The notes: generated from the letters alone by a model not told the origin. A DNA stretch of 12,053 nt from a virus (IMGVR_UViG_3300021426_000065:167173-179225); one strand, 5' to 3'. Positions 1-12,053 are shown, counted from the first letter of the stretch. Made by a program: numbers and translations.

Positions 1-131
1 TAGGCACAGGTTACAGAAGAGATTTATTTATGACGGATTCTAATAATAATCCAATTACTAATGATACTAAAATGGAGATATATACGCCTTCAAAAGAATT
101 AGAAATTGATTGGGAAGGGGAATCTAAATGA
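1..131 (+). CDS. 3' end of an upstream gene, possibly a replicative (DnaB-like) helicase; partial
   Basis: Open frame from position 3: GTGYRRDLFMTDSNNNPITNDTKMEIYTPSKELEIDWEGESK, ending TGA 129-131, which overlaps the primase ATG (ATGA). The helicase call rests only on its position before a primase and a loose resemblance of GTGYRRDLFMTD to phage helicase C-termini. Confidence 0.45.
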   Translation, partial: GTGYRRDLFMTDSNNNPITNDTKMEIYTPSKELEIDWEGESK

Positions 132-1255
132 TAGCTACGCTAGGCGATTTAGATACAGAATTGGATTTAATAGAAATGACTAAAAGAGACATTATGGAAT
201 CTATTACATTAGATGACGTAAAGACTTTTTTAGAAAGTTTGGGAGTTAATCAGATAGCCATGTATCCTGAAAAAGGATATTTAGTATGCCCAACAATTTG
301 TCATAATCCACTTCACGCGGCGGAATCTATGAAATTATATTGGTATCAGAATAATAAGATTTTCCGCTGCTATACTGAATGCAATGAAGCGATGTCCATT
401 TTTACTTTATATAAAAAGTTTATGGACATTAATGAAGATAGAAAAATCTCTGATGACGAAGCAGAGATGTATGTAAAGCATTGCTTAAAACAAATAGTAC
501 ATGTTAATCAGAGAAAAAAATACAAAGATGATTTAGATTTAGAAAAATATAAATATACAAAAAATATTCCTATATTAGATGAATATCCAACGGAAATATT
601 ATCTTACTTTACAAAATACTATCATCCACTATGGTTAAAAGATGGTATTACAAAAGAAGCAATGGATAAGTTTCAAATTAGTTTTTGTATTGGACAAAAT
701 AAAATTGTAATCCCGCATTTTGATATAAATGGCCGTCTAGTTGGTATTCGCGCGCGTTCTATTGAAGAACGTGATATTGAAGAGTATGGAAAATATATGC
801 CGATAAAAATTGGGCCAACAATGTATACACATCAACTTCAATTTAATTTATATGGAATATATGAACACCAGATTGGCATACAATATCGTAGAAGCGCGAT
901 TATCGCAGAAGGAGAAAAATCCGTTTTATTGGATGACGGATATTATGGAGATTTAAGTAATTGTGTTGCTTGCTGCGGTTCTACTTTTAATAAATATCAC
1001 ATTAGTTTATTAACTGATATATTAGGAGCTAATGAGATTATCGTCGCGCTTGACAAAGAATATGAAAATTGCCGCGACGAAAAAGCAAAAAAGTATAAAG
1101 AAAAAATAGTTTCTATGTGTAGAAAATATAAGAATCAAGCGAATTTTTCATACATGTGGGACTTTGATAATGTATTAAAAGAAAAAGATTCCCCGTTTGA
1201 TAGAGGTAAAGATATATTTGAACATTTATATAAAACAAGAGTTAAAGTAAAGTAA
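128..1255 (+). CDS. dnaG: DnaG-like phage DNA primase (N-terminal Zn-binding domain plus TOPRIM domain), 375 aa
   Basis: CPTICH...CYTEC zinc-binding motif; IVIPHFDINGRLVGIRAR primase core motif; TOPRIM IIAEGEKS and IIVALDKE. Purine-rich SD-like GGAAGGGG upstream; ends TAA; no internal TAG. Confidence 0.85.
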   Translation: MIATLGDLDTELDLIEMTKRDIMESITLDDVKTFLESLGVNQIAMYPEKGYLVCPTICHNPLHAAESMKLYWYQNNKIFRCYTECNEAMSIFTLYKKFMDINEDRKISDDEAEMYVKHCLKQIVHVNQRKKYKDDLDLEKYKYTKNIPILDEYPTEILSYFTKYYHPLWLKDGITKEAMDKFQISFCIGQNKIVIPHFDINGRLVGIRARSIEERDIEEYGKYMPIKIGPTMYTHQLQFNLYGIYEHQIGIQYRRSAIIAEGEKSVLLDDGYYGDLSNCVACCGSTFNKYHISLLTDILGANEIIVALDKEYENCRDEKAKKYKEKIVSMCRKYKNQANFSYMWDFDNVLKEKDSPFDRGKDIFEHLYKTRVKVK

Positions 1256-3160: not shown

Positions 3161-3369
3161 TTTGCACTGATTGTATATTCGCTTATACTGACCCGAATGA
3201 TGATGAAGATGTTTATAGTTGCCCATTCTCTTTTCAGTATGCGTTCCATAGTAATGAAAAATGTCATTATCCGAAAATGTATGCTGGAATGATAAGAAAA
3301 TTAAGGCCAAAATTAAATCTATATAAGCATATACGAACTGCGATAGTGGAAACACTTGACGAAGATTAA
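3157..3369 (+). CDS. Small Cys-rich hypothetical protein, 70 aa
   Basis: AAGGAG SD at 3143-3148, 8 nt before the ATG. CTDC...C...C pattern; ends TAA. Confidence 0.75.
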   Translation: MICTDCIFAYTDPNDDEDVYSCPFSFQYAFHSNEKCHYPKMYAGMIRKLRPKLNLYKHIRTAIVETLDED

Positions 3370-3384
3370 AAATTATGCTATAAT
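3356..3384 (+). promoter_or_regulatory. Consensus sigma-70/sigma-A promoter with extended -10, upstream of dnaE
   Basis: TTGACG (3356-3361), 17-nt spacer, TG at 3376-3377, TATAAT (3379-3384). SD GAGGTG at 3404-3409 precedes the GTG start at 3415. Confidence 0.85.
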
Positions 3385-3414
3385 AATTACAGAATAATAG
3401 AAAGAGGTGGTTGT

Positions 3415-6400
3415 GTGAGTTTATACCCTGGTTCTTTGCATAATCACACCGATTATAGCAATGAGACACTTCGTGATTGTATAAATAAAGTAAATGCCCT
3501 AATTGATACAGCAATTCAATTAGGGCATGAATGCGTTGCAATTACAGACCATGAGACAATTTCAAGTTATATTAAAGCAGAAAAATATTATAAGAAAATT
3601 AAAGAACAGCATCCAGATTTTAAATTAATTCGCGGCAATGAGATTTATCTAACACGAAATGATTTAAACGCGAAAAACTTTGATAAAACCCGCGATAGAT
3701 ATTTTCACTTTATTCTTTTATGTAAAGATTTAGAAGGTTATCATCAAATTTGTGAATTATCTACAAGGGCATGGAAGCGGTCATATATTAGTCGTAGGTT
3801 GCGGCGGCGTCCAACTTATTATAGAGACTTAAAAGAAATAGTAGGAAAAAATCCGGGACATTTGATTGCTTCAAGTGCTTGCTTAGGTTCGTAGCTAGAT
3901 AGATTTTTACTTCAATATATGGATACCAATGATATTAATTTTTATGAAACAGCAAAGAATTGGTGTTTATATATTCAAAATATTTTTGGTGCTGGAAATT
4001 TTTATTTAGAGATGCAGCCTTCAAATGGGAAAGAACAGGTATTCGTAAACAAACAGTTATTAAAAATTAGTGAAGAATTAAATATTCCATATATTATCAC
4101 AACTGATAGTCATTATCTACGACCAGAAGATGCGTTTATTCATGAAACATTTTTAAATGCACAAGATGGTGAGCGTGAAGTTAAAAGTTTTTATGAAACA
4201 ACTTATATGATGACGGATGAAGAGATTCGTTCATTTTTCCCATATTTAACAGAAGAACAAATTGAGGCCGCGTATAAAACTATTAGAGAAATAAAAGATA
4301 AATGTGAAGATTTTAGTATTTTAAAGCCATTGGAAATTCCTCAACTTCCATGGAGAAAATTTAAGCGGCGGCAACCAGACGAAGTTTTTGCTTTTACAAG
4401 ACTAATGCCAGCATTAGAAAAATTTGTTAAATCTCAATATTATGCCGATAATCAATTAGCATTGGCGCTTATTGAAGGTATTCACGAGCATGAAGATTTA
4501 CAAAATCAAGCGGCATATGATGCTCTTAATGAGTGTCTAGAAATGACCTGGATTTCAAGTGAAGTAAATAAAGCGCAGTGGTCTGCATATTTCTTAAATC
4601 TTCAAAAGATTATAGATGAATGTTGGAACGCGGGAACATTAGTTATGCCCGCACGTGGCTCTGGTGGCGGTTTCTTACTTTTATATGCGTTAGATATTAT
4701 TCAAATTAATTGTCTGCGCGAAAAAACGCCCACGTTCCCATGGAGGTTCTTGAATCCAGCGCGTGTTAGCGTCCTTGATATTGACGTTGATATTTCTGGT
4801 ATTAAACGCGCACAAGTATTGGAACATTTAAGAGATTTCTACGGAGAAAACCGAGTATCAAATGTTGCGACTTTTAAGTTAGAGAAATCAAAATCTGCGA
4901 TATTAACCGCATGCCGCGGTCTTGGTATTGATGTAGATAATGCACAGTATGTTTCTTCATTAATTGGCGCGGAGCGTGGACAACTATATACATTGAAACA
5001 AATGTATTATGGTGATGAAGAAAATGGTCTTCAACCGAATCAGATGTTTATTAATGAAGTAAATAAATATCCAAAATTGTGGGAAGTTGCAAATCGTATC
5101 GAAGGATTGATTTGCGGAATGGGTATTCACGCGGGTGGTGTTGTATTTAAAGATAAAGATTTTACAGAATCTTCTGCCTTAATGCGTGCGCCCGATGGAA
5201 CAATCGTAACTCAATTTGAGCTTCATGATTTGGAAGATGTTTCAGAAATTAAGATGGATTTACTTTCAGTTGAAGCCGCGGATAAAATTCAAGTTTGCTT
5301 GGAAATGTTAGTTAAAGATGGTTATATTAAAGAATATCCAACTTTAAGAGAAACATATGAACATGCATTAAATGTATATCAACTTGAACGCGAAGATCCT
5401 AAAATGTGGGATATGGTACATGACCACAAAATTATTTCACTATTCCAGATGGAAAAAGATAGCGGTATACGCGGTATTGGATTAACAAATCCACGTAATG
5501 TAGATGACCTTGCAACCTTAAACTCCGTTATTCGTCTAATGGCTGCGGAGAAAGGCGCAGAATCACCACTTGATAAGTATGCGCGATTCCGTGAACATCC
5601 TTGGATGTGGGATAAAGAAATGCGCGAATATGGATTGACAGAAGAGCAAATGAAATTAATGCATAAAGAACTTGATATTTCAAATGGTCTTTCTATTACA
5701 CAGGAACAATTTATGAAACTGGTTCAGTTACCAGAATGTGGCGGCTGGGACTTACAATTCGCAGATAAGTTAAGAAAAAGTATTGCAAAAAAGAATCCAA
5801 AAGAATACGAAGAATTAACTGAAAAGTTTTTTAAAGGCATTAAAGAAAAAGGATGCGATGAGCGTTTTTGCCATTATGTATGGGATGTTCAGATTGCATT
5901 AAGCCGCGGCTATGGCTTCAATGCGAGTCACACGCTTGCTTATTCTATAATTGCGCTTCAAGAAATGAATCTAGCATATAAGTATCCAATCGTATATTGG
6001 AACACAGCTAATCTTATCGTAGATAGTGGCGGTGTGCAAACTGTCAATTTTGAAGATGATAATGATGAAGCAATGATTGAAGTAGAATTGGCGCCGGATG
6101 ATGACGCGGTTGATACCACGGCGGAAGATGATGATGAAGAATTAGAAGAGTGGGAAGAGGCAAATAAAGACATTACAACGAATGAAGAAGATAAGAAAAA
6201 GAAAAAGCAAAAGAATATAGATTATGGACGTATCGCGTCTATAATTGGTAAATTAGGTGGATACGGGATTCAAGTTTCACCGCCAGATATTAATAAATCT
6301 TCTTATACATTTACTCCAATCGCGGAAACAAACACAATCCTATACGGACTACGCGGCATCGCACGCATATCCGGAGAAAAAATTACTGAAATTATGGAAC

Positions 6401-7401
6401 AGCGCCCATACTTATCTTTAAGGGACTTTTTAGAAAAGAATAAATTAAATATTATACAGATTGTAAATTTGATTAAATCTGGGGCATTTGATGAAATTGA
6501 AAAAATGCCGCGAGAAGAAATAATGCGGAAGTTTCTTGAATCAACTATTGATAAAAAGGTAGATTTGAATTTAAGAAATATGCAGGCATTGATTACAAAA
6601 GATTTAATTCCAGAAGATATGGTGTTTTATAAGAAGTTATTCTTGTTTAATAAGTTCTTAAAAGATAATAAAGATGGTATTTATTATAGATTAAATGATG
6701 CGGCAATTAATTATATTACAAAGAATTTTGACGCAGATTTAATTGAAAATGGTATGCAGATTTCTCAAAAGGTTTGGGATAACATTTATAAGAAAGCAAT
6801 GGACCCAATGAGAGAATATATAAAAACGCATAAACAAGAAATGCTACAAAAATTAAATGACACGATTTATAATGAAGCCGCGGAAAAATATAGCGGTGGT
6901 AATATAAGTAAATGGGAAATGGATAGTATTAGTTTTTATTATCATGAGCATGAGCTTGCCACTGTGGCCTCACAGTATGATGATTTCTTTACTTTACCAG
7001 AAGAACCAGAAATTGAATATAGTTTTACTGGTACAAATGGACAAGAAATTAGAGTATATACTTTACATAAGATTATTGGTACAGTAATTGATAAAGATAA
7101 ATTACATAATACAGTAACGTTATTAACTCCAACCGGTGTTGTAACTGTTAAAGTATATAAGAATCAGTTTGCGATATATGATAAACAGTTATCGCAACGT
7201 GGTGAAGATGGCAAGAAACACGTTATTGAGAAGAGCTGGTTTAGTCGTGGCACCAAGTTAATGGTACAAGGAATTAGAAGAGAAAATAACTTCATTCCTA
7301 AAAAACGAAAGAACTCAGTATTCCCGGTTATTGCAAAAATTACATCAATAAATGATGATAATTTAACATTCCAGTTTGAACGTGCGGAGGTAGATGAATA
7401 A
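3415..7401 (+). CDS. dnaE: DNA polymerase III alpha subunit (DnaE-type, family C), 1328 aa with one TAG read as Gln
   Basis: PHP motifs HNHTDYS, AITDH, GNEIY, HFILL, SSACLGS(Q)L, TTDSHY; polymerase motifs ARGSGGG, LDIDVD, HAGGV, KMDLL, FQME, GYGFNASHTLAYS; C-terminal OB fold. The single in-frame TAG at 3892-3894 joins ORFs 3415-3894 and 3919-7401. GTG start with SD; ends TAA. Confidence 0.95.
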
Positions 7402-8480
7402 TGATTGGACTTGTTGATTATGATTTCTATTCCGCCTCTGCTATAACAAAATTAATTCCTAACATAGAAATAATGAAGCTTGCAACATACTATAAGGCGG
7501 AAAGAAATATTTTCTGCCGCCTTATAGATTTAAATGAAACGGAATTAACAAATTATGATAAGATATATTTTTTCAGTGAAAGTGAGCGGCCAATTCAAGT
7601 TCCTGACGCATTTAAAAAAACAACAAATATAATTTTTGGTGGCACCAATTTTACTAAAAATTATATTCCATTTGAAGACCAAATTATTGATTATACAATT
7701 CCGCGGCCAGCAATATACAAAGAAATACTTAAAAAGAAATATCAAGAAGGAATTAAATCACATGTAATTACGCATATATTGGACGATAGTTATTATAGGA
7801 TGTTCGCAGGCGACAAGGTATTGCCAATTCCGCCAGTAAAAACAAAAAAGCGTATTTTTATATTTGATAAAGATATATTTCATCCTGGATGGGAAGATGT
7901 TCTTAATAAAGTCGCAGAACGTAATCCAGCAAAAATCTTAACTATTCATCCCGCGCGATGTAAGACCTTAACATAGTATTTTACTTTACGTGGAATTGAA
8001 AAAATGGGTCGCGCGAATGAAATCATTCTTGACTTGGATATTCCACTTGATGAAGTACATTATATGTTAAAAAATTATAAAAATAAATTTTTAGCTGATA
8101 TTACAGAATCTTCTAATGTGTCTATTACGCTTGGTGGTGATTTTAGATATTCAAAGTTTTATTTAGAAGATTTTATATATAAAATGAATATATTATTTTC
8201 TTTTTGGGCTTGCAAAATCCCATTGAAAATTAAATATGAATAGCCATCACTTGGTTATGTAGACCCATTATTCCATCTTTCTAAATTGGTAGAAGGGTGG
8301 ACAAAAGGGCCATCAAAAAAAAATAAATCTTTGGCCGAGCGAACTCTTGTTTAGCAAAGCGGCAAAATCGGACCGGCGCGAGAAGCACGCAATTTATTAC
8401 AAGAAAAATACCCCGCAGCAAAAGATTTATTTAATCATAATTTTACAACACTATCTGCTAAGGGGGTTTGGAGAATATGA
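7401..8480 (+). CDS. Hypothetical protein, 359 aa (TAG=Gln); N-terminus resembles phage radical-SAM/Fe-S oxidoreductase-like proteins but lacks CxxxCxxC
   Basis: One frame from ATG 7401 (TAATG overlap with the dnaE stop, GGAGG SD) through TAG 7974, 8241 and 8352 to TGA 8478-8480, which overlaps the next ATG. IGLVDYD...PNIEIMKLATYYK...YDKIY...GGTN matches my recollection of the IGLIDVD...PNLALMK(L/I)S phage family. The CDS is solid; the family call is tentative. Confidence 0.75.
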
Positions 8481-8692
8481 TAGAAGAAATTATTGCAGAA
8501 AAAGAGCGATTGGATAAAGAATTAAAAATCGCCCTTGCAACTATGGAAAAGAAAAGTACAATAAAAGAAATCCAAGCAAAAATGCGTGTGAATTAGAGCA
8601 GATGCCCGCATTTTGATGCTAGATATAATTTCGTATGGGTTGATGATACTTGCCCATATTGTGGGAAAAAACATGTTGGGAGGCCAGAATAA
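8477..8692 (+). CDS. Small protein with an N-terminal helix and a C-terminal zinc ribbon, 71 aa (TAG=Gln)
   Basis: MIEEIIAEKERLDKELKIALATMEKKSTIKEIQAKMRVN(Q)SRCPHFDARYNFVWVDDTCPYCGKKHVGRPE. TAG at 8594; CPH...CPYCG. ATGA overlap upstream; its TAA directly abuts the next ATG. Confidence 0.8.
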
Positions 8693-8905
8693 ATGATAGT
8701 AAAACTATATACATTACCGAACTGCGGAATATGCCATATGGTAAAAACTAAATTGTAGAATAAAAATATTTTATTTGAAGAACATGACTTCCAAGAAATT
8801 GCTGACGTTATCCATTCTGATCACGCCCCAGCGCTTGAAGTTGAAAATAATATTTATAATAGTCCAACTGAAATAGTGCAATGGATTAATAATTACGAGG
8901 AGTGA
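8693..8905 (+). CDS. nrdH: NrdH/glutaredoxin-like redoxin, 70 aa (TAG=Gln)
   Basis: MIVKLYTLPNCGICHMVKTKL(Q)NKNILFEEHDFQEIADVIHSDHAPALEVENNIYNSPTEIVQWINNYEE. CxxC after beta-1 (LYTLPNCGIC), a cis-Pro-type AP motif and glutaredoxin size. TAG at 8756; GGGAGG SD. Missed by the ORF track. Confidence 0.88.
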
Positions 8906-8910
8906 TTTTA

Positions 8911-10833
8911 ATGGATATTAAAGTTAGATTAAGTAAAAATTTCTAGACTTTATATAATAGATTAAGTGAAAAATACGGCGAAGAAATGGCCTATCTAAAT
9001 GGCTTTGGAGATAAACAATTATCTTATACTGATTTTATAGATAATTTTATAGATAAAGATACTGTCGCGGATGCTTCTGTTGATGGTAATTCAAATGTCG
9101 GCAATAAAGATATGCGTACTTTAATGAATGAGATGCCTAAGCCACATCGGAAACTATTAGCTTTTAATAAAATTTATTATGAAATGAATAAGCGTTATGG
9201 CTTTAAGGACGCAAATGATTGGCTAGAAAAAGAATGGACGAAAGCGCTATACATGCATGATGCTGATACAAGCACTTATGTACATTATTGCTTTGCTTAT
9301 GATTTAAAAGATGTCGCAGAAAAAGGACTATTCTTTTTAAACAATTTTAATGCAGAGCCTCCACGGCATTTAAGCACATTTGTTGATTTTGTAAAAGAAT
9401 TTATTAGTTTCGCGGCAAATCGTAGTTCCGGTGCAGTAGGACTTCCAAATATTATTCCTTATATGTATTATTTCTGGAAGAAAGATTGCGACACTGGATA
9501 TGCAACTAAATCTCCCGAGTATTATGCTAGACAGCAAATTCAGCGATTTGTATATGCTGTTAATTAGCCTTACGTGCGAGATGGAATGCAATCGGCCTTT
9601 ACAAATTGCTCTGTTTTTGACATGGCTTATCTTGAAGCATTATTCGGAGGAGCACAGTTCCCTGACGGGTCTTTCATGATTGATAGTCTTAAAGAAATTC
9701 AAGATTTCCAAAAGGTATTTATGGAAACAATCGCCGAAATTCGTCAACATAATATGTTTACTTTCCCCGTATTAACGATTAGCTTACTTCGTAAAGATGG
9801 AAAATTTAAAGATGAAGAATTCGCGCGCTGGGGCATTGAACATAATAGGAAATGGAGCGATTCAAACTTATTTATTGATGATAGTGTTAATTCATTGAGT
9901 AATTGTTGCCGCTTAAAGAGTAATATTGAAGATTTAGGTTATTTTAATAGTATCGGTGGCACAGCATTAAAAGTTGGTTCTGTTAAAGTATCCACTGTAA
10001 ATTTGGCTAGGCTCGCACTTGAATATCCAGGAGATGAGGATTTGTATCTCGCGGCTTTACATGATTTAGTTGAACTTGATTGTAAGGTGTTAGATTGCGT
10101 GCGCCATATTATTAAACGCAATGTAGAAAAAGGATTGCTACCAAATTTCTCCAAGGGTATTGTAGATTTTGAACATTTATATAATACAGTGGGTATTATT
10201 GGTATTTATGAAACAATGAAAACATTTGGCTACACGCGCGAAGACGAACTTGGCAACGTATATTATACAGAAAAAGCTGATGCTTTCGGCAAGCGCATTT
10301 TTGAGATGCTGCATGCTACAAAAGATAACTTTGCTATTGATAAAGATTATAAGATTAATGTGGAGCAAATTCCAGGTGAATCCGCCGCGGCAAAAATGCA
10401 ATTAGCAGATGAATTCTTTTATCCAGACACGGTTGTAAAAGATTTGCCACTATATGGGAATCAATTCATTCCACTTGGTATTAAAACCACTATGATTGAG
10501 CGCATTCGTATTGCTTCTCTGTTTGATTCATATTGTAATGGTGGTTCTATCGCTCACCTAAACATTGATGCTCCATTTGATAGTTTTGAAAAAGCGTGGA
10601 ACGCTGTTAATTATATTGCCGACCAGGGTTTAACTTATTTTGCCTTTAATACAAAAATTCAAGCTTGTGAAAAAAACCATGCTTTCTATGGTAAGAAATG
10701 CCCCATTTGTGGCGGCGATGTCGCGACTGAATATACACGTATCGTAGGTTTTTATACGCCTATTAAAACTTGGTCCAAAGAAAGAAAGGCCGAATTTAAA
10801 ATGAGGCAATGGGAGAAAATTAATGAAACTTAA
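8911..10833 (+). CDS. nrdD: Anaerobic (class III) ribonucleoside-triphosphate reductase, 640 aa (TAG=Gln)
   Basis: GAGGAG SD 8 nt before ATG 8911. TAG at 8944 and 9565, the second inside YAVN(Q)PYVRDGMQSAFTN. Motifs HYCFAY, SSGAVG, FTFPVLT, SNCCRL, IPGES, Zn site CEKNH...CPICG and glycyl-radical TRIVGF. Ends TAA. Confidence 0.95.
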
Positions 10834-11305
10834 AGGAATAATTGATTGTGATTTTACAAATTATAAAGAACCAGTATTAACGCTAGAATTTCCTAAATGT
10901 AATTTTAAATGTGATAAATTAAATGGTCGCCAAGTTTGCCAAAATAGCGGCTTGGCAGCCGAACCAGATATAGATATTCCTTATGAAAAAATTTGGGAAC
11001 TATATCAACAAAATCCTTTAACCAAAGGTTTTTGTTTTCAAGGTTTGGAACCATTTGATAGCCCAAACGAATTAAATGAAATTATACATTTTATTAGAGA
11101 TGAAAAAAAGTGCAATGACCCAATAATTATTTATACAGGATATGGTCGCGGCGAAGCGTTCTTAATAGAGTATACTTTAAGACATATATTTACTAATATT
11201 ATAGTAAAGTGGGGCCGTTTCGTTCTTGGTGATGAACCACATTATGATGAAGTATTAGGAGTCAATCTAGCAAGTAATAATCAATATGCGGAGAAAGTAT
11301 CATGA
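10823..11305 (+). CDS. nrdG: Anaerobic RNR activating enzyme (radical SAM), 160 aa
   Basis: Directly follows nrdD (11-nt overlap). C-NFK-C-x8-C-QN motif, GFCFQGLEPF, IYTGY, IIVKWGRF and LASNNQY, typical of NrdG. Confidence 0.9.
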   Translation: MKLKGIIDCDFTNYKEPVLTLEFPKCNFKCDKLNGRQVCQNSGLAAEPDIDIPYEKIWELYQQNPLTKGFCFQGLEPFDSPNELNEIIHFIRDEKKCNDPIIIYTGYGRGEAFLIEYTLRHIFTNIIVKWGRFVLGDEPHYDEVLGVNLASNNQYAEKVS

Positions 11306-11499
11306 AAAAGCATTTGAATCCAGATAAAGAACTTGTAAATATTATTATAGAAGGATTAAAAAATAATCAAAGTTATTGTCCTTGTATTTATAATAGTTTA
11401 AATAAGCCAGAATATAAATGCCCATGCCAAGATTTTAGAGAAAAAACACAAATTGGTGAAGCATGTCATTGCGGCTTATATATAAAAGATGAAATGTAA
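11302..11499 (+). CDS. ftrB: Ferredoxin:thioredoxin reductase catalytic (beta) subunit-like protein, 65 aa
   Basis: YCPC...CPC...CHCGLY is the FTR catalytic-chain signature (4Fe-4S ligands plus redox-active disulfide). ATGA overlap with nrdG; GGAG SD; ends TAA. Confidence 0.88.
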   Translation: MKKHLNPDKELVNIIIEGLKNNQSYCPCIYNSLNKPEYKCPCQDFREKTQIGEACHCGLYIKDEM

Positions 11500-11501
11500 T
11501 C

Positions 11502-11532
11502 GCGGGAGAAAATTTCTCCCGCACCTTTTTAT
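11502..11532 (+). terminator. Rho-independent terminator after the RNR operon
   Basis: GCGGGAGAA-AAT-TTCTCCCGC perfect 9-bp stem (11502-11522) starting 2 nt after the ftrB stop, followed by ACCTTTTTATTT. Confidence 0.85.
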
Positions 11533-11561
11533 TTGACTTTTTATCCATTTTCTGTTATAAT
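11533..11561 (+). promoter_or_regulatory. Consensus sigma-70/sigma-A promoter with extended -10
   Basis: TTGACT (11533-11538), 17-nt spacer, TG at 11553-11554, TATAAT (11556-11561). SD GAGGTG at 11580-11585 precedes ATG 11590. Confidence 0.85.
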
Positions 11562-11589
11562 ATAATAAAGAAATTATGAGAGGTGTGAT

Positions 11590-12053
11590 ATGAAAGTCGG
11601 AATTATTGTAGTATTAATAATTTGTATTATTGTTCTGATAATAAAACTTACATAGAAAACAGTTTTAGATGAAAGCCGCAAAAATTAGCTTGAATAGGAA
11701 GTTAATAATCTTGAAGAAGAGTTGGATTCATTAGAAAATGAAATCCAAATAAAGTAGAACTCCTATCATGATTTGATTAATAATAAGATTAAGAATTTGG
11801 ATAATCTTCTTGCGGAGCAAGAAAAGTAGCGGCAAAAAGATTTTGAAGATAAGTGGTTTGCGAAAGATGCAACCGCGGCGGAATAGTTTGCCAATACAGA
11901 AACCTATTATAAGTAGGAAGCCGCGTAGCTAGAAGCAAACTTATAGTAGGTTCAAAAAGATATTGATAACAAAATTGAAATTCTTCAAAATAATTATAAT
12001 TAGGAAGAAGAAAAATTTAAAGCACTTCTTGGACCGCTTCAACAATATGATAA
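11590..12053 (+). CDS. Membrane-anchored coiled-coil protein, 5' part (at least 154 aa, TAG=Gln), runs off the window
   Basis: MKVGIIVVLIICIIVLIIKLT(Q)KTVLDESRKN(Q)LE(Q)EVNNLEEELDSLENEIQIK(Q)NSY... An N-terminal hydrophobic helix followed by heptad-like E/Q/K/L-rich sequence. The frame has 11 TAG and no TAA or TGA. It has its own promoter and SD. Entirely missed by the ORF track. Confidence 0.88.

Follow-up and report, generated by a model that had tools for sequence, protein, structure and literature searches.

Gene-by-gene TAG use in a code-15 ruminant gut phage and the predicted late translation of two nucleases

Recoding has been proposed in the literature to serve phages as an expression clock, a hypothesis that very few experiments support. 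In the code-switch model, early genes are readable in the standard code and structural and lysis genes are recoded (Borges et al., 10.1101/2021.08.26.457843); in the same study, recoding of the replication machinery varied, close relatives differed in code, and the few preferentially recoded families included a homing endonuclease in an early gene and a transmembrane protein. Here, we analyzed a stretch of 12,053 nucleotides (IMGVR_UViG_3300021426_000065:167173-179225; the window), which is the final 12 kb of one 179,225-bp viral contig. It carries the gene for a DnaE-type DNA polymerase that is nearly free of in-frame TAG and, behind a terminator and a promoter, a TAG-rich gene for a protein with a predicted GIY-YIG nuclease domain. 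The TAG pattern of this phage is a well-resolved new instance of the code-switch model in a new phage family; as in that model, a standard-code host is presumed and the phage supplies a suppressor tRNA. Unlike in that model, the strongly recoded genes discussed here are two nucleases in a nucleotide-metabolism operon with a replication-class promoter, not a lysis cassette; their TAG share equals the neutral expectation; and the suppressor tRNA gene is interrupted by a predicted group I intron, with no release factor 2 (RF2) or aminoacyl-tRNA synthetase encoded in the genome.

A second described system is phAss-1 and the proposed Phassvirus, gut phages that recode TAG, encode DnaE, and are predicted to infect Clostridia, in which TAG was found mostly in virion genes and in "several DNA-processing enzymes"; the paper gives no gene-by-gene TAG share and no promoter analysis (PMC10607447). 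Our phage shares with phAss-1 code 15 (TAG read as Gln), a DnaE-type polymerase, anaerobic ribonucleotide reductase (RNR) genes, and tRNA-Sup-CTA genes. The two genomes differ in size (136 kb for phAss-1 versus 179 kb here).

Gene-specific timing through a tRNA also has a cellular counterpart in the bldA-type control of Streptomyces, in which genes containing the rare codon TTA depend on a developmentally regulated tRNA-Leu(UAA). The mechanism that we propose would resemble bldA in that the supply of one tRNA, for a codon avoided in earlier genes, sets the timing of particular genes. It would differ in that bldA acts on a sense codon in a cell, involves neither release-factor competition nor a change of code, and usually concerns one codon per gene, so that the steep dependence of yield on codon number considered below does not arise.

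TAG use by gene, promoter class, and relative

DnaE (window positions 3415 to 7401, plus strand, 1,328 codons) used TAG for 1 of its 54 Gln codons, along with 34 CAA and 19 CAG, and the primase, nrdG, and ftrB genes used none, which agrees with the counts in an earlier note on this DNA. The TAG-rich gene begins at 11590 on the plus strand. Its open reading frame (ORF) passes the contig end and was completed across a 144-bp overlap, so that 154 codons lie in the window (11590 to 12053) and the rest of the 310 codons lies at genome positions 146 to 613. The window part had 11 TAG and 7 CAA codons (11 of 18 Gln codons, as that note had counted), and the full gene had 13 TAG, 14 CAA, and no CAG (13 of 27); the difference from DnaE was significant for the window part (Fisher test, P value = 1 × 10−7) and for the full gene (P value = 6 × 10−7). 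We also recovered the terminator and host-type promoter that the note had placed at 11502 to 11561. The intrinsic terminator (11502 to 11531, plus strand, −15.8 kcal/mol) consists of a 9-bp GC-rich stem (11502 to 11522) with a 3-nt loop, followed by a T run. The genome-wide promoter scan described below placed a sigma-70-type promoter of class 2, near consensus and with an extended −10 element (TTGACT-17-TGnTATAAT), at 11533 to 11561 on the plus strand.

A step in TAG use between the two transcription units was not confirmed. Eight further in-frame TAGs, which the earlier note had missed, lie between DnaE and the terminator, and four of the seven genes in the downstream unit are TAG-free. That unit runs from the promoter at 11533 to 11561 to a bidirectional terminator at genome positions 3396 to 3419, with no strong sense-strand terminator between them, and its genes carry, in order, 13, 0, 1, 0, 0, 7, and 0 TAGs. 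The fifth gene encodes a dUTPase without TAG, and the sixth encodes a RuvC-type resolvase with seven TAGs, the start codon of which overlaps the dUTPase stop. Because a TAG-free and a TAG-rich gene thus overlap in one operon, the contrast in TAG use lies between single genes and not between transcription units.

To assign TAG, we translated the phage's own ORFs with TAG masked and compared them with 74 related loci from IMG/VR. The residues facing the phage's TAGs were Q (559), K (162), E (157), TAG (126), and S (32); in the reverse comparison, the relatives' TAGs faced Q most often in this phage (193 of about 530). Since Gln dominates opposite TAG in the relatives, TAG encodes Gln. Ser, Leu, and Tyr, which were considered on account of the long variable arm and G73 of the phage's tRNA(CUA), were rejected, all three being rare opposite TAG. 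The public runs that hold sequence of this phage are sheep, goat, and bovine gut metagenomes, and the phage is a code-15 phage of the ruminant gut. Its promoters are of the sigma-70/sigma-A type and its relatives suggest Bacillota as hosts; a blastn search with DnaE against cultured phages returned only short patches of 67 to 76% identity to the DnaE genes of Enterococcus and Lactobacillus phages. The first and last 144 bp of the contig match bar one mismatch, indicating that the assembly closes on itself.

Next, we looked into TAG use across the genome and among orthologs, two comparisons that the earlier note had proposed. A simple ORF caller run with TAG as Gln yielded 192 genes with 450 in-frame TAGs, which were unevenly distributed (χ2 = 216.7, df = 54, P value = 2 × 10−21) and sorted by gene rather than by operon. 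TAG accounted for 0.10 of the Gln codons in the small (early) genes at 41.8 to 72 kb and 0.09 in the replication and nucleotide metabolism genes at 124 to 178.7 kb, compared with 0.37 in virion block 1 (3.4 to 40.9 kb) and 0.32 in virion block 2 (72 to 111 kb). About 15 genes formed a plateau at shares of 0.39 to 0.56. The GIY-YIG gene (0.48; orthologs pooled, 0.34) is one of them, and its share is no higher than expected from composition alone, which we estimated at 0.33 (position specific) to 0.42. It has the highest TAG density of the genome, 4.19 per 100 codons, only because it is rich in Gln (8.7%). TAG in the off-frames was flat over the modules (2.8 to 4.5 per 100 codons), and GC content did not correlate with TAG share. 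TAG avoidance tracked a higher CAG share (Spearman correlation = −0.65), which fits the interconversion of CAG and TAG by one transition.

These results indicate that the genes fall into two states, near-avoidance of TAG and free use at compositional equilibrium, at about 0.35 to 0.5 of Gln codons. The avoiding state is found in some 45 small early genes with perfect TTGACA-17-TGnTATAAT promoters, in the majority of the replication and nucleotide-metabolism genes, which have TTGACT-type promoters, and in a block of TAG-free virion genes, among them those for the major virion structural protein and the candidate major capsid protein; the free state comprises the remaining late proteins, which are mostly large. 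Because the TAG-rich genes sit at neutral equilibrium, it is the avoidance elsewhere, not an enrichment in the GIY-YIG gene, that needs explaining.

Among the late genes, TAG counts were 3 for TerL, 2 for the portal gene, 6 for Dit, 5 for the endolysin, and 146 for a giant ORF of 5,369 codons (genome positions 10489 to 26598, minus strand) that is flanked by the Dit-like gene and the head genes and is probably a tape-measure or other giant virion protein. Six contiguous head genes (L002:11439-15345) and the major virion structural protein gene (L002:7619-8629), all on the minus strand within the TAG-rich virion block, are TAG-free. Several TAG-free virion genes use CAG almost exclusively for Gln, with 10 CAG and 1 CAA in the candidate capsid protein gene; a cost in translational efficiency may be a second reason for TAG avoidance in virion genes. 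The early/late division of the code-switch model is thus seen here, with the early class-1 genes TAG-free and TAG in structural and endolysin genes. The candidate capsid and major virion proteins, which have none, are the exceptions.

The genome-wide promoter scan revealed two sharply defined sigma-70-type families with distinct extended consensus sequences. Class 1 (TTGACA-17-TGnTATAAT with an upstream A/T tract, 43 copies) occurs mostly at 40.9 to 58 kb before small TAG-free genes. Class 2 (TATTTGACTTTT...AAAATTATGnTATAAT, 24 copies) occurs at 60 to 71 kb, over the tRNA island, and over the replication module; the virion blocks have almost no promoters of either class. Genes adjoining class-1 promoters have no TAG, whatever their size, and among those adjoining class-2 promoters, only the GIY-YIG gene has more than two. 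Two other consensus promoters with 18-nt spacers, ending at 40918 and 59940 on the minus strand, also precede genes of the TAG plateau, the former heading a virion block. We infer that class 1 fires ahead of class 2. In the 40.9- to 58-kb region, about 40 perfect TTGACA-17-TGnTATAAT promoters stand close together, all preceded by an A/T tract, and a conserved leader, A[AC]ACCAGAAAGG, is confined to this region (14 copies).

The gene-by-gene pattern held in about 30 recoded relatives. Mean TAG counts per 100 codons were 0.01 for DnaE (65 orthologs), 0.05 for dUTPase (48 orthologs), 2.47 for the GIY-YIG gene (34 orthologs), and 1.68 for RuvC (51 orthologs), and the pooled TAG share across relatives was 0.00 to 0.02 for primase, DnaE, RecJ, dUTPase, and the NrdG-like activase. 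In recoded relatives, the median TAG share was 0.40 for the GIY-YIG ortholog versus 0.03 for the rest of its neighborhood (n = 31, paired Wilcoxon test, P value = 1 × 10−6) and 0.46 for RuvC versus 0.02 for the neighborhood (n = 32, P value = 9 × 10−7), P values that overstate the support in that the relatives share ancestry. A median of 75% of the neighborhood's TAGs fell within the 10% of codons that belong to these two orthologs. Individual TAG positions were not conserved past the two closest relatives. The median identity of a gene family did not correlate with its TAG share (Spearman correlation = −0.16, P value = 0.46), and TAG share in the GIY-YIG orthologs was 0.35 in the variable coiled coil and 0.33 in the conserved half, as expected of a neutral synonymous codon. 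On these grounds and the flat off-frame counts, we rejected local composition, ortholog conservation, and conservation within the gene as the source of the TAG shares.

The same phage family has standard-code members, namely, L015, L058, and L068 and the more distant L041, L052-L057, and L060. The DnaE proteins of L015 and L058 are about 77% identical to that of our phage, and L068 also has a TAG-free Dit. The GIY-YIG, RuvC, and Dit orthologs of standard-code relatives contain no TAG. An equivalent promoter precedes the GIY-YIG ortholog in all 18 relatives inspected, recoded and standard-code alike.

The GIY-YIG protein and the suppressor tRNA

The earlier note had taken the TAG-rich gene for a membrane protein. 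A transmembrane helix at residues 4 to 20 bears this out, but it is followed by a long coiled coil, which contains 11 of the TAGs, and by a conserved small helical domain; the protein ends in a GIY-YIG domain, which contains the other two. The domain was identified by Pfam (PF01541, 41 bits versus a cutoff of 22.6), and PHROG homing-endonuclease families also matched. The GIY, YIG, Arg, Glu, and Asn motifs did not vary among 16 orthologs, and in the same set the Gln that aligns with the TAG at codon 259, within the nuclease domain, was likewise invariant. An AlphaFold2 model of a 93%-identical ortholog (pLDDT, 86.8) showed a continuous helix to residue 163, a small helical domain, and an alpha/beta domain; with Foldseek, its best PDB matches were the I-TevI catalytic domain, at the top (1mk0 and 1ln0, E value of about 6 × 10−5, TM-score of 0.8), and the UvrC nuclease domain; 2wsh was a weak match. 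From sequence and model together, the product is predicted to be a coiled-coil protein that is anchored in the membrane and carries a GIY-YIG nuclease domain.

Two other identities were considered and rejected. All 34 relatives that cover the region have the gene in synteny and under a promoter of its own, and the nuclease domain comes last in the protein, after a membrane anchor and a coiled coil, all of which argues against a mobile GIY-YIG homing endonuclease. A Rz-like spanin match for the N-terminal half (phrog_214) reached an E value of only 1.5 × 10−3 on the transmembrane helix and coiled coil, and the endolysin gene is on the opposite strand, at a distance of about 72 kb. The protein shares its catalytic domain fold and motifs with I-TevI and with T4 EndoII (DenA; 2wsh, the weak match). 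It differs from both in having no intron or intein context, no C-terminal DNA-binding domain, and an N-terminal membrane anchor with a coiled coil of about 140 residues and in that its gene belongs to the syntenic core, each relative having it under a separate promoter. In T4, denA lies beside the nrd genes and starts the breakdown of host DNA for nucleotide supply, which we take as a lead only. A membrane-tethered nuclease among RNR and dUTPase genes could, as a conjecture, serve in host-DNA breakdown or in the exclusion of incoming DNA.

The phAss-1 ortholog, annotated there as fragments, has 326 amino acids, the same succession of transmembrane helix, coiled coil, and GIY-YIG domain, and eight TAGs; its conserved half is only 34% identical to ours. 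In phAss-1 (OQ749652.1, L088:5776-6034), this gene lies directly upstream of a tRNA-Leu and two tRNA-Sup-CTA genes, adjoining NrdD and NrdG.

The phage encodes a suppressor tRNA(CUA) of 92 nt at genome positions 117710 to 117978, split after U35 by a 177-nt insert. Standard aragorn, without introns, did not find it, and Rfam gave only a 13.9-bit partial tRNA match there; we first suspected that a suppressor tRNA was absent, a view overturned once aragorn allowed introns. The insert matches the Rfam group I intron family (RF00028) at 49.3 bits, against a gathering score of 50 (E value = 1 × 10−11); the elements of the conserved core fit the model, a P1 U.G pair falls exactly at the predicted 5′ splice site, and the insert ends in G. 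A perfect class-2 promoter of its own lies about 13 nt upstream of the gene. The tRNA has a long variable arm and G73, and the loop of that arm (CTCTGAA) resembles the anticodon loop of tRNA-Gln(CUG). This loop is also present in an RNA contig from a relative and in the long-arm tRNA(CUA) of phAss-1, and the arm stem differs. The phAss-1 homolog is unlike ours in being intron-less and directly beside the GIY-YIG gene.

The contig from RNA run X8 joins the exons exactly at the predicted junction, but it comes from a related phage with other flanks and another variable-arm stem and could derive from an intron-less gene. A DNA search for the tRNA plus intron in five complete relatives gave one weak intron match only, inside tRNA-Leu(UAA). 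Neither a release factor (PF00472) nor a Glu/Gln-tRNA synthetase (PF00749; GlnRS) was found in the genome.

In the tRNA-Leu(UAA) gene of our phage (genome positions 116477 to 117288), a 726-nt insert lies between U34 and A35 and carries a 164-amino-acid ORF with an HNH-like Cys/His pattern. At the same site, the relative G002 has a 198-nt, ORF-less intron that is 67% identical to that of the suppressor tRNA, and an intron-less form of tRNA-Leu(UAA) was also present in a DNA run from the source sample.

A proposed timing of translation and its alternatives

We consider it likely that, TAG use being a two-state property of single genes, the GIY-YIG and RuvC nucleases, which belong to a replication-class operon, appear later than their neighbors and with a sharp threshold. 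The GIY-YIG gene and, five genes downstream, RuvC are free-use genes within an otherwise TAG-avoiding operon that has a replication-class promoter. TAG would be read only by the phage's own tRNA(CUA), which would have to be transcribed from the same promoter class, self-splice the predicted 177-nt group I intron out of its anticodon, and be charged, and which would compete with host release factor 1 (RF1), which ends translation at TAG. If s is the probability of reading through one TAG, the full-length yield of a gene with n TAGs would be s^n, that is, s^13 for the GIY-YIG gene and s^7 for RuvC versus s^0 or s^1 for their neighbors. At s = 0.5, the computed yield is 50% for DnaE and 0.01% for the GIY-YIG protein; at s = 0.9, the values are 90% and 25%. 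The giant protein, with 146 TAGs in 5,369 amino acids, implies that late suppression must reach about 0.99 per codon. Suppression would thus climb from zero at infection to near-complete late, and genes with many TAGs would switch on late and steeply, even when cotranscribed with TAG-free neighbors; any delay would stem from accumulation of the tRNA, splicing of its intron, and its charging. Delayed, threshold-like translation would follow logically from the sequence combined with standard knowledge of amber suppression. Timing may be why TAG was kept in both nucleases, or the codon may merely have been tolerated there, since both enzymes would be required only late and at low levels.

The earlier note had proposed that the supply of suppressor tRNA gates the TAG-rich protein. 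The 13 TAGs, with a yield of s^13, and the presence of an encoded tRNA(CUA) argue for such a gate. Several points weigh against it. The timing is drawn from sequence only. The tRNA(CUA) shares the promoter class of the gene it would gate, so that nothing points to a delay in transcribing the tRNA; gene and tRNA may be expressed at the same time, and any lag could be brief. TAG is also present in DnaE (one), RecJ (three in this genome), and NrdD (one or two), and suppression would therefore be present when replication genes are translated; in this genome, DnaE, RecJ, and NrdD themselves need it. Standard-code relatives keep the same gene and promoter without TAG, and gating is therefore dispensable there. 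Because the TAG share is not above neutral, positive selection for TAG is not demonstrated; together with the promoter class of the tRNA and the standard-code relatives, this weakens the further-reaching idea that selection made TAG a timer. Lastly, the ORF calls are crude, some N-terminal TAGs may precede true starts, and the shared ancestry of the relatives bears on the tests above.

Several of these points serve an account without any timing, in which suppression is efficient once class-2 promoters fire, the tRNA having the same promoter class, and TAG density reflects how strongly a gene is selected for efficient translation. Proteins that are abundant or sensitive to dosage would then lose their TAGs, enzymes of low copy number, such as the two nucleases, would drift to the compositional equilibrium, and production of the TAG-rich protein would begin at about the same time as that of DnaE. 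We regard such passive tolerance as possible but doubtful. It would accommodate a TAG share in the GIY-YIG gene and its orthologs equal to the neutral 0.33 to 0.42, the turnover of TAG positions, and the TAG-free candidate capsid and major virion proteins in the late block, where an efficiency cost would drive avoidance; the promoter class of the tRNA, the ungated standard-code relatives, and the TAGs in DnaE, RecJ, and NrdD fit it as well. It does not account for the primase, DnaE, RecJ, dUTPase, and NrdG-like activase, which have the same promoter class and are presumably low in copy number but contain almost no TAG in dozens of relatives, so that copy number by itself fails to separate the genes. 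Class-1 early genes, moreover, are all TAG-free regardless of size, and the s^13 dependence would remain for as long as the tRNA builds up.

A stronger form of the timing proposal, in which the TAGs of both nucleases are a selected safety lock, seems rather unlikely to us. The nucleases would be cotranscribed with genes for replication and nucleotide supply and their translation held until the intron-split tRNA matures, so that early replicating DNA is protected; before the switch, the mRNA of the GIY-YIG gene would give only a 21-residue transmembrane peptide, which might act itself.

A third account would make the contrast an artefact, due to base composition, to the poor conservation of a Gln-rich coiled coil, or to a spurious ORF with TAG as a genuine stop that yields nothing but the 21-amino-acid peptide. 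We consider it very improbable, since, although 11 of the 13 TAGs lie in a fast-evolving coiled coil and the gene is AT-rich (GC content, 0.30) and Gln-rich, its off-frame TAG count is average (10 in 310 codons), the ortholog TAG share is the same in both halves, the frame past the TAGs encodes a GIY-YIG domain with invariant motifs and a TAG on an invariant Gln, and conservation across gene families does not correlate with TAG share, RuvC being 63% conserved and TAG-rich and dUTPase 45% conserved and TAG-free.

Near-complete late suppression, which the steep dependence with up to 146 TAGs in one protein would imply, with neither a phage release factor nor a synthetase raises the question of how host RF1 is overcome. 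The phage family offers a clean natural test of the clock hypothesis: a single operon under one conserved promoter of host type interleaves genes that lack TAG (dUTPase) with genes saturated in it (the GIY-YIG nuclease and RuvC); this alternation recurs in about 30 recoded relatives; and standard-code relatives with the same gene order are built-in controls. The alternation within the operon, the recoding of two nucleases, and the intron-split suppressor tRNA of the same promoter class are the details useful for such testing.

The DnaE transcription unit and the tRNA island

The primase gene lies at window positions 128 to 1255 and has no TAG. DnaE is preceded by a sigma-70-type promoter with an extended −10 element (3356 to 3384, plus strand; TTGACG-17-TGnTATAAT, 11 of 12 matches with the TG present), found in the same genome-wide scan, and was identified as a DNA polymerase III alpha subunit by the Pfam domains PHP, DNA_pol3_alpha, finger, and HHH_6. 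Its single TAG, at window position 3892 (codon 160), is CAG in relatives with 96 to 99% identity and TAG in none of the 65 orthologs; judging from this alignment, it appears to be a recent C-to-T change or a polymorphism.

The further TAGs lie in the remaining genes of the unit, all on the plus strand. A gene of 359 amino acids, with no function assigned (7401 to 8480), overlaps the DnaE stop codon and has three TAGs (7974, 8241, and 8352) among eight Gln codons; of its 40 orthologs, 65% contain TAG, with a pooled share of 0.19. Two small genes follow at 8468 to 8905, a 74-amino-acid ORF (8468 to 8692) and a glutaredoxin/NrdH-like gene, with one TAG each. NrdD, the anaerobic ribonucleotide reductase (8902 to 10833; Pfam NRDD, 306 bits), has a TAG at 9565 (codon 222) and a second one at 8944 that may precede the true start; its TAG positions are mostly Q in relatives (21 of 27). 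The NrdG-like activase gene (10823 to 11305) and a ferredoxin-thioredoxin-reductase-beta-like gene (11302 to 11499), which together span 10823 to 11499, have no TAG.

Elsewhere in the genome, the tRNA island gave two sub-threshold Rfam matches, one to the cow-rumen-3 RNA (L006:16081-16180; 60.2 bits, threshold 86.7) and one to the Y-RNA-like YrlA (L006:15718-15827; 32.9 bits, threshold 69).

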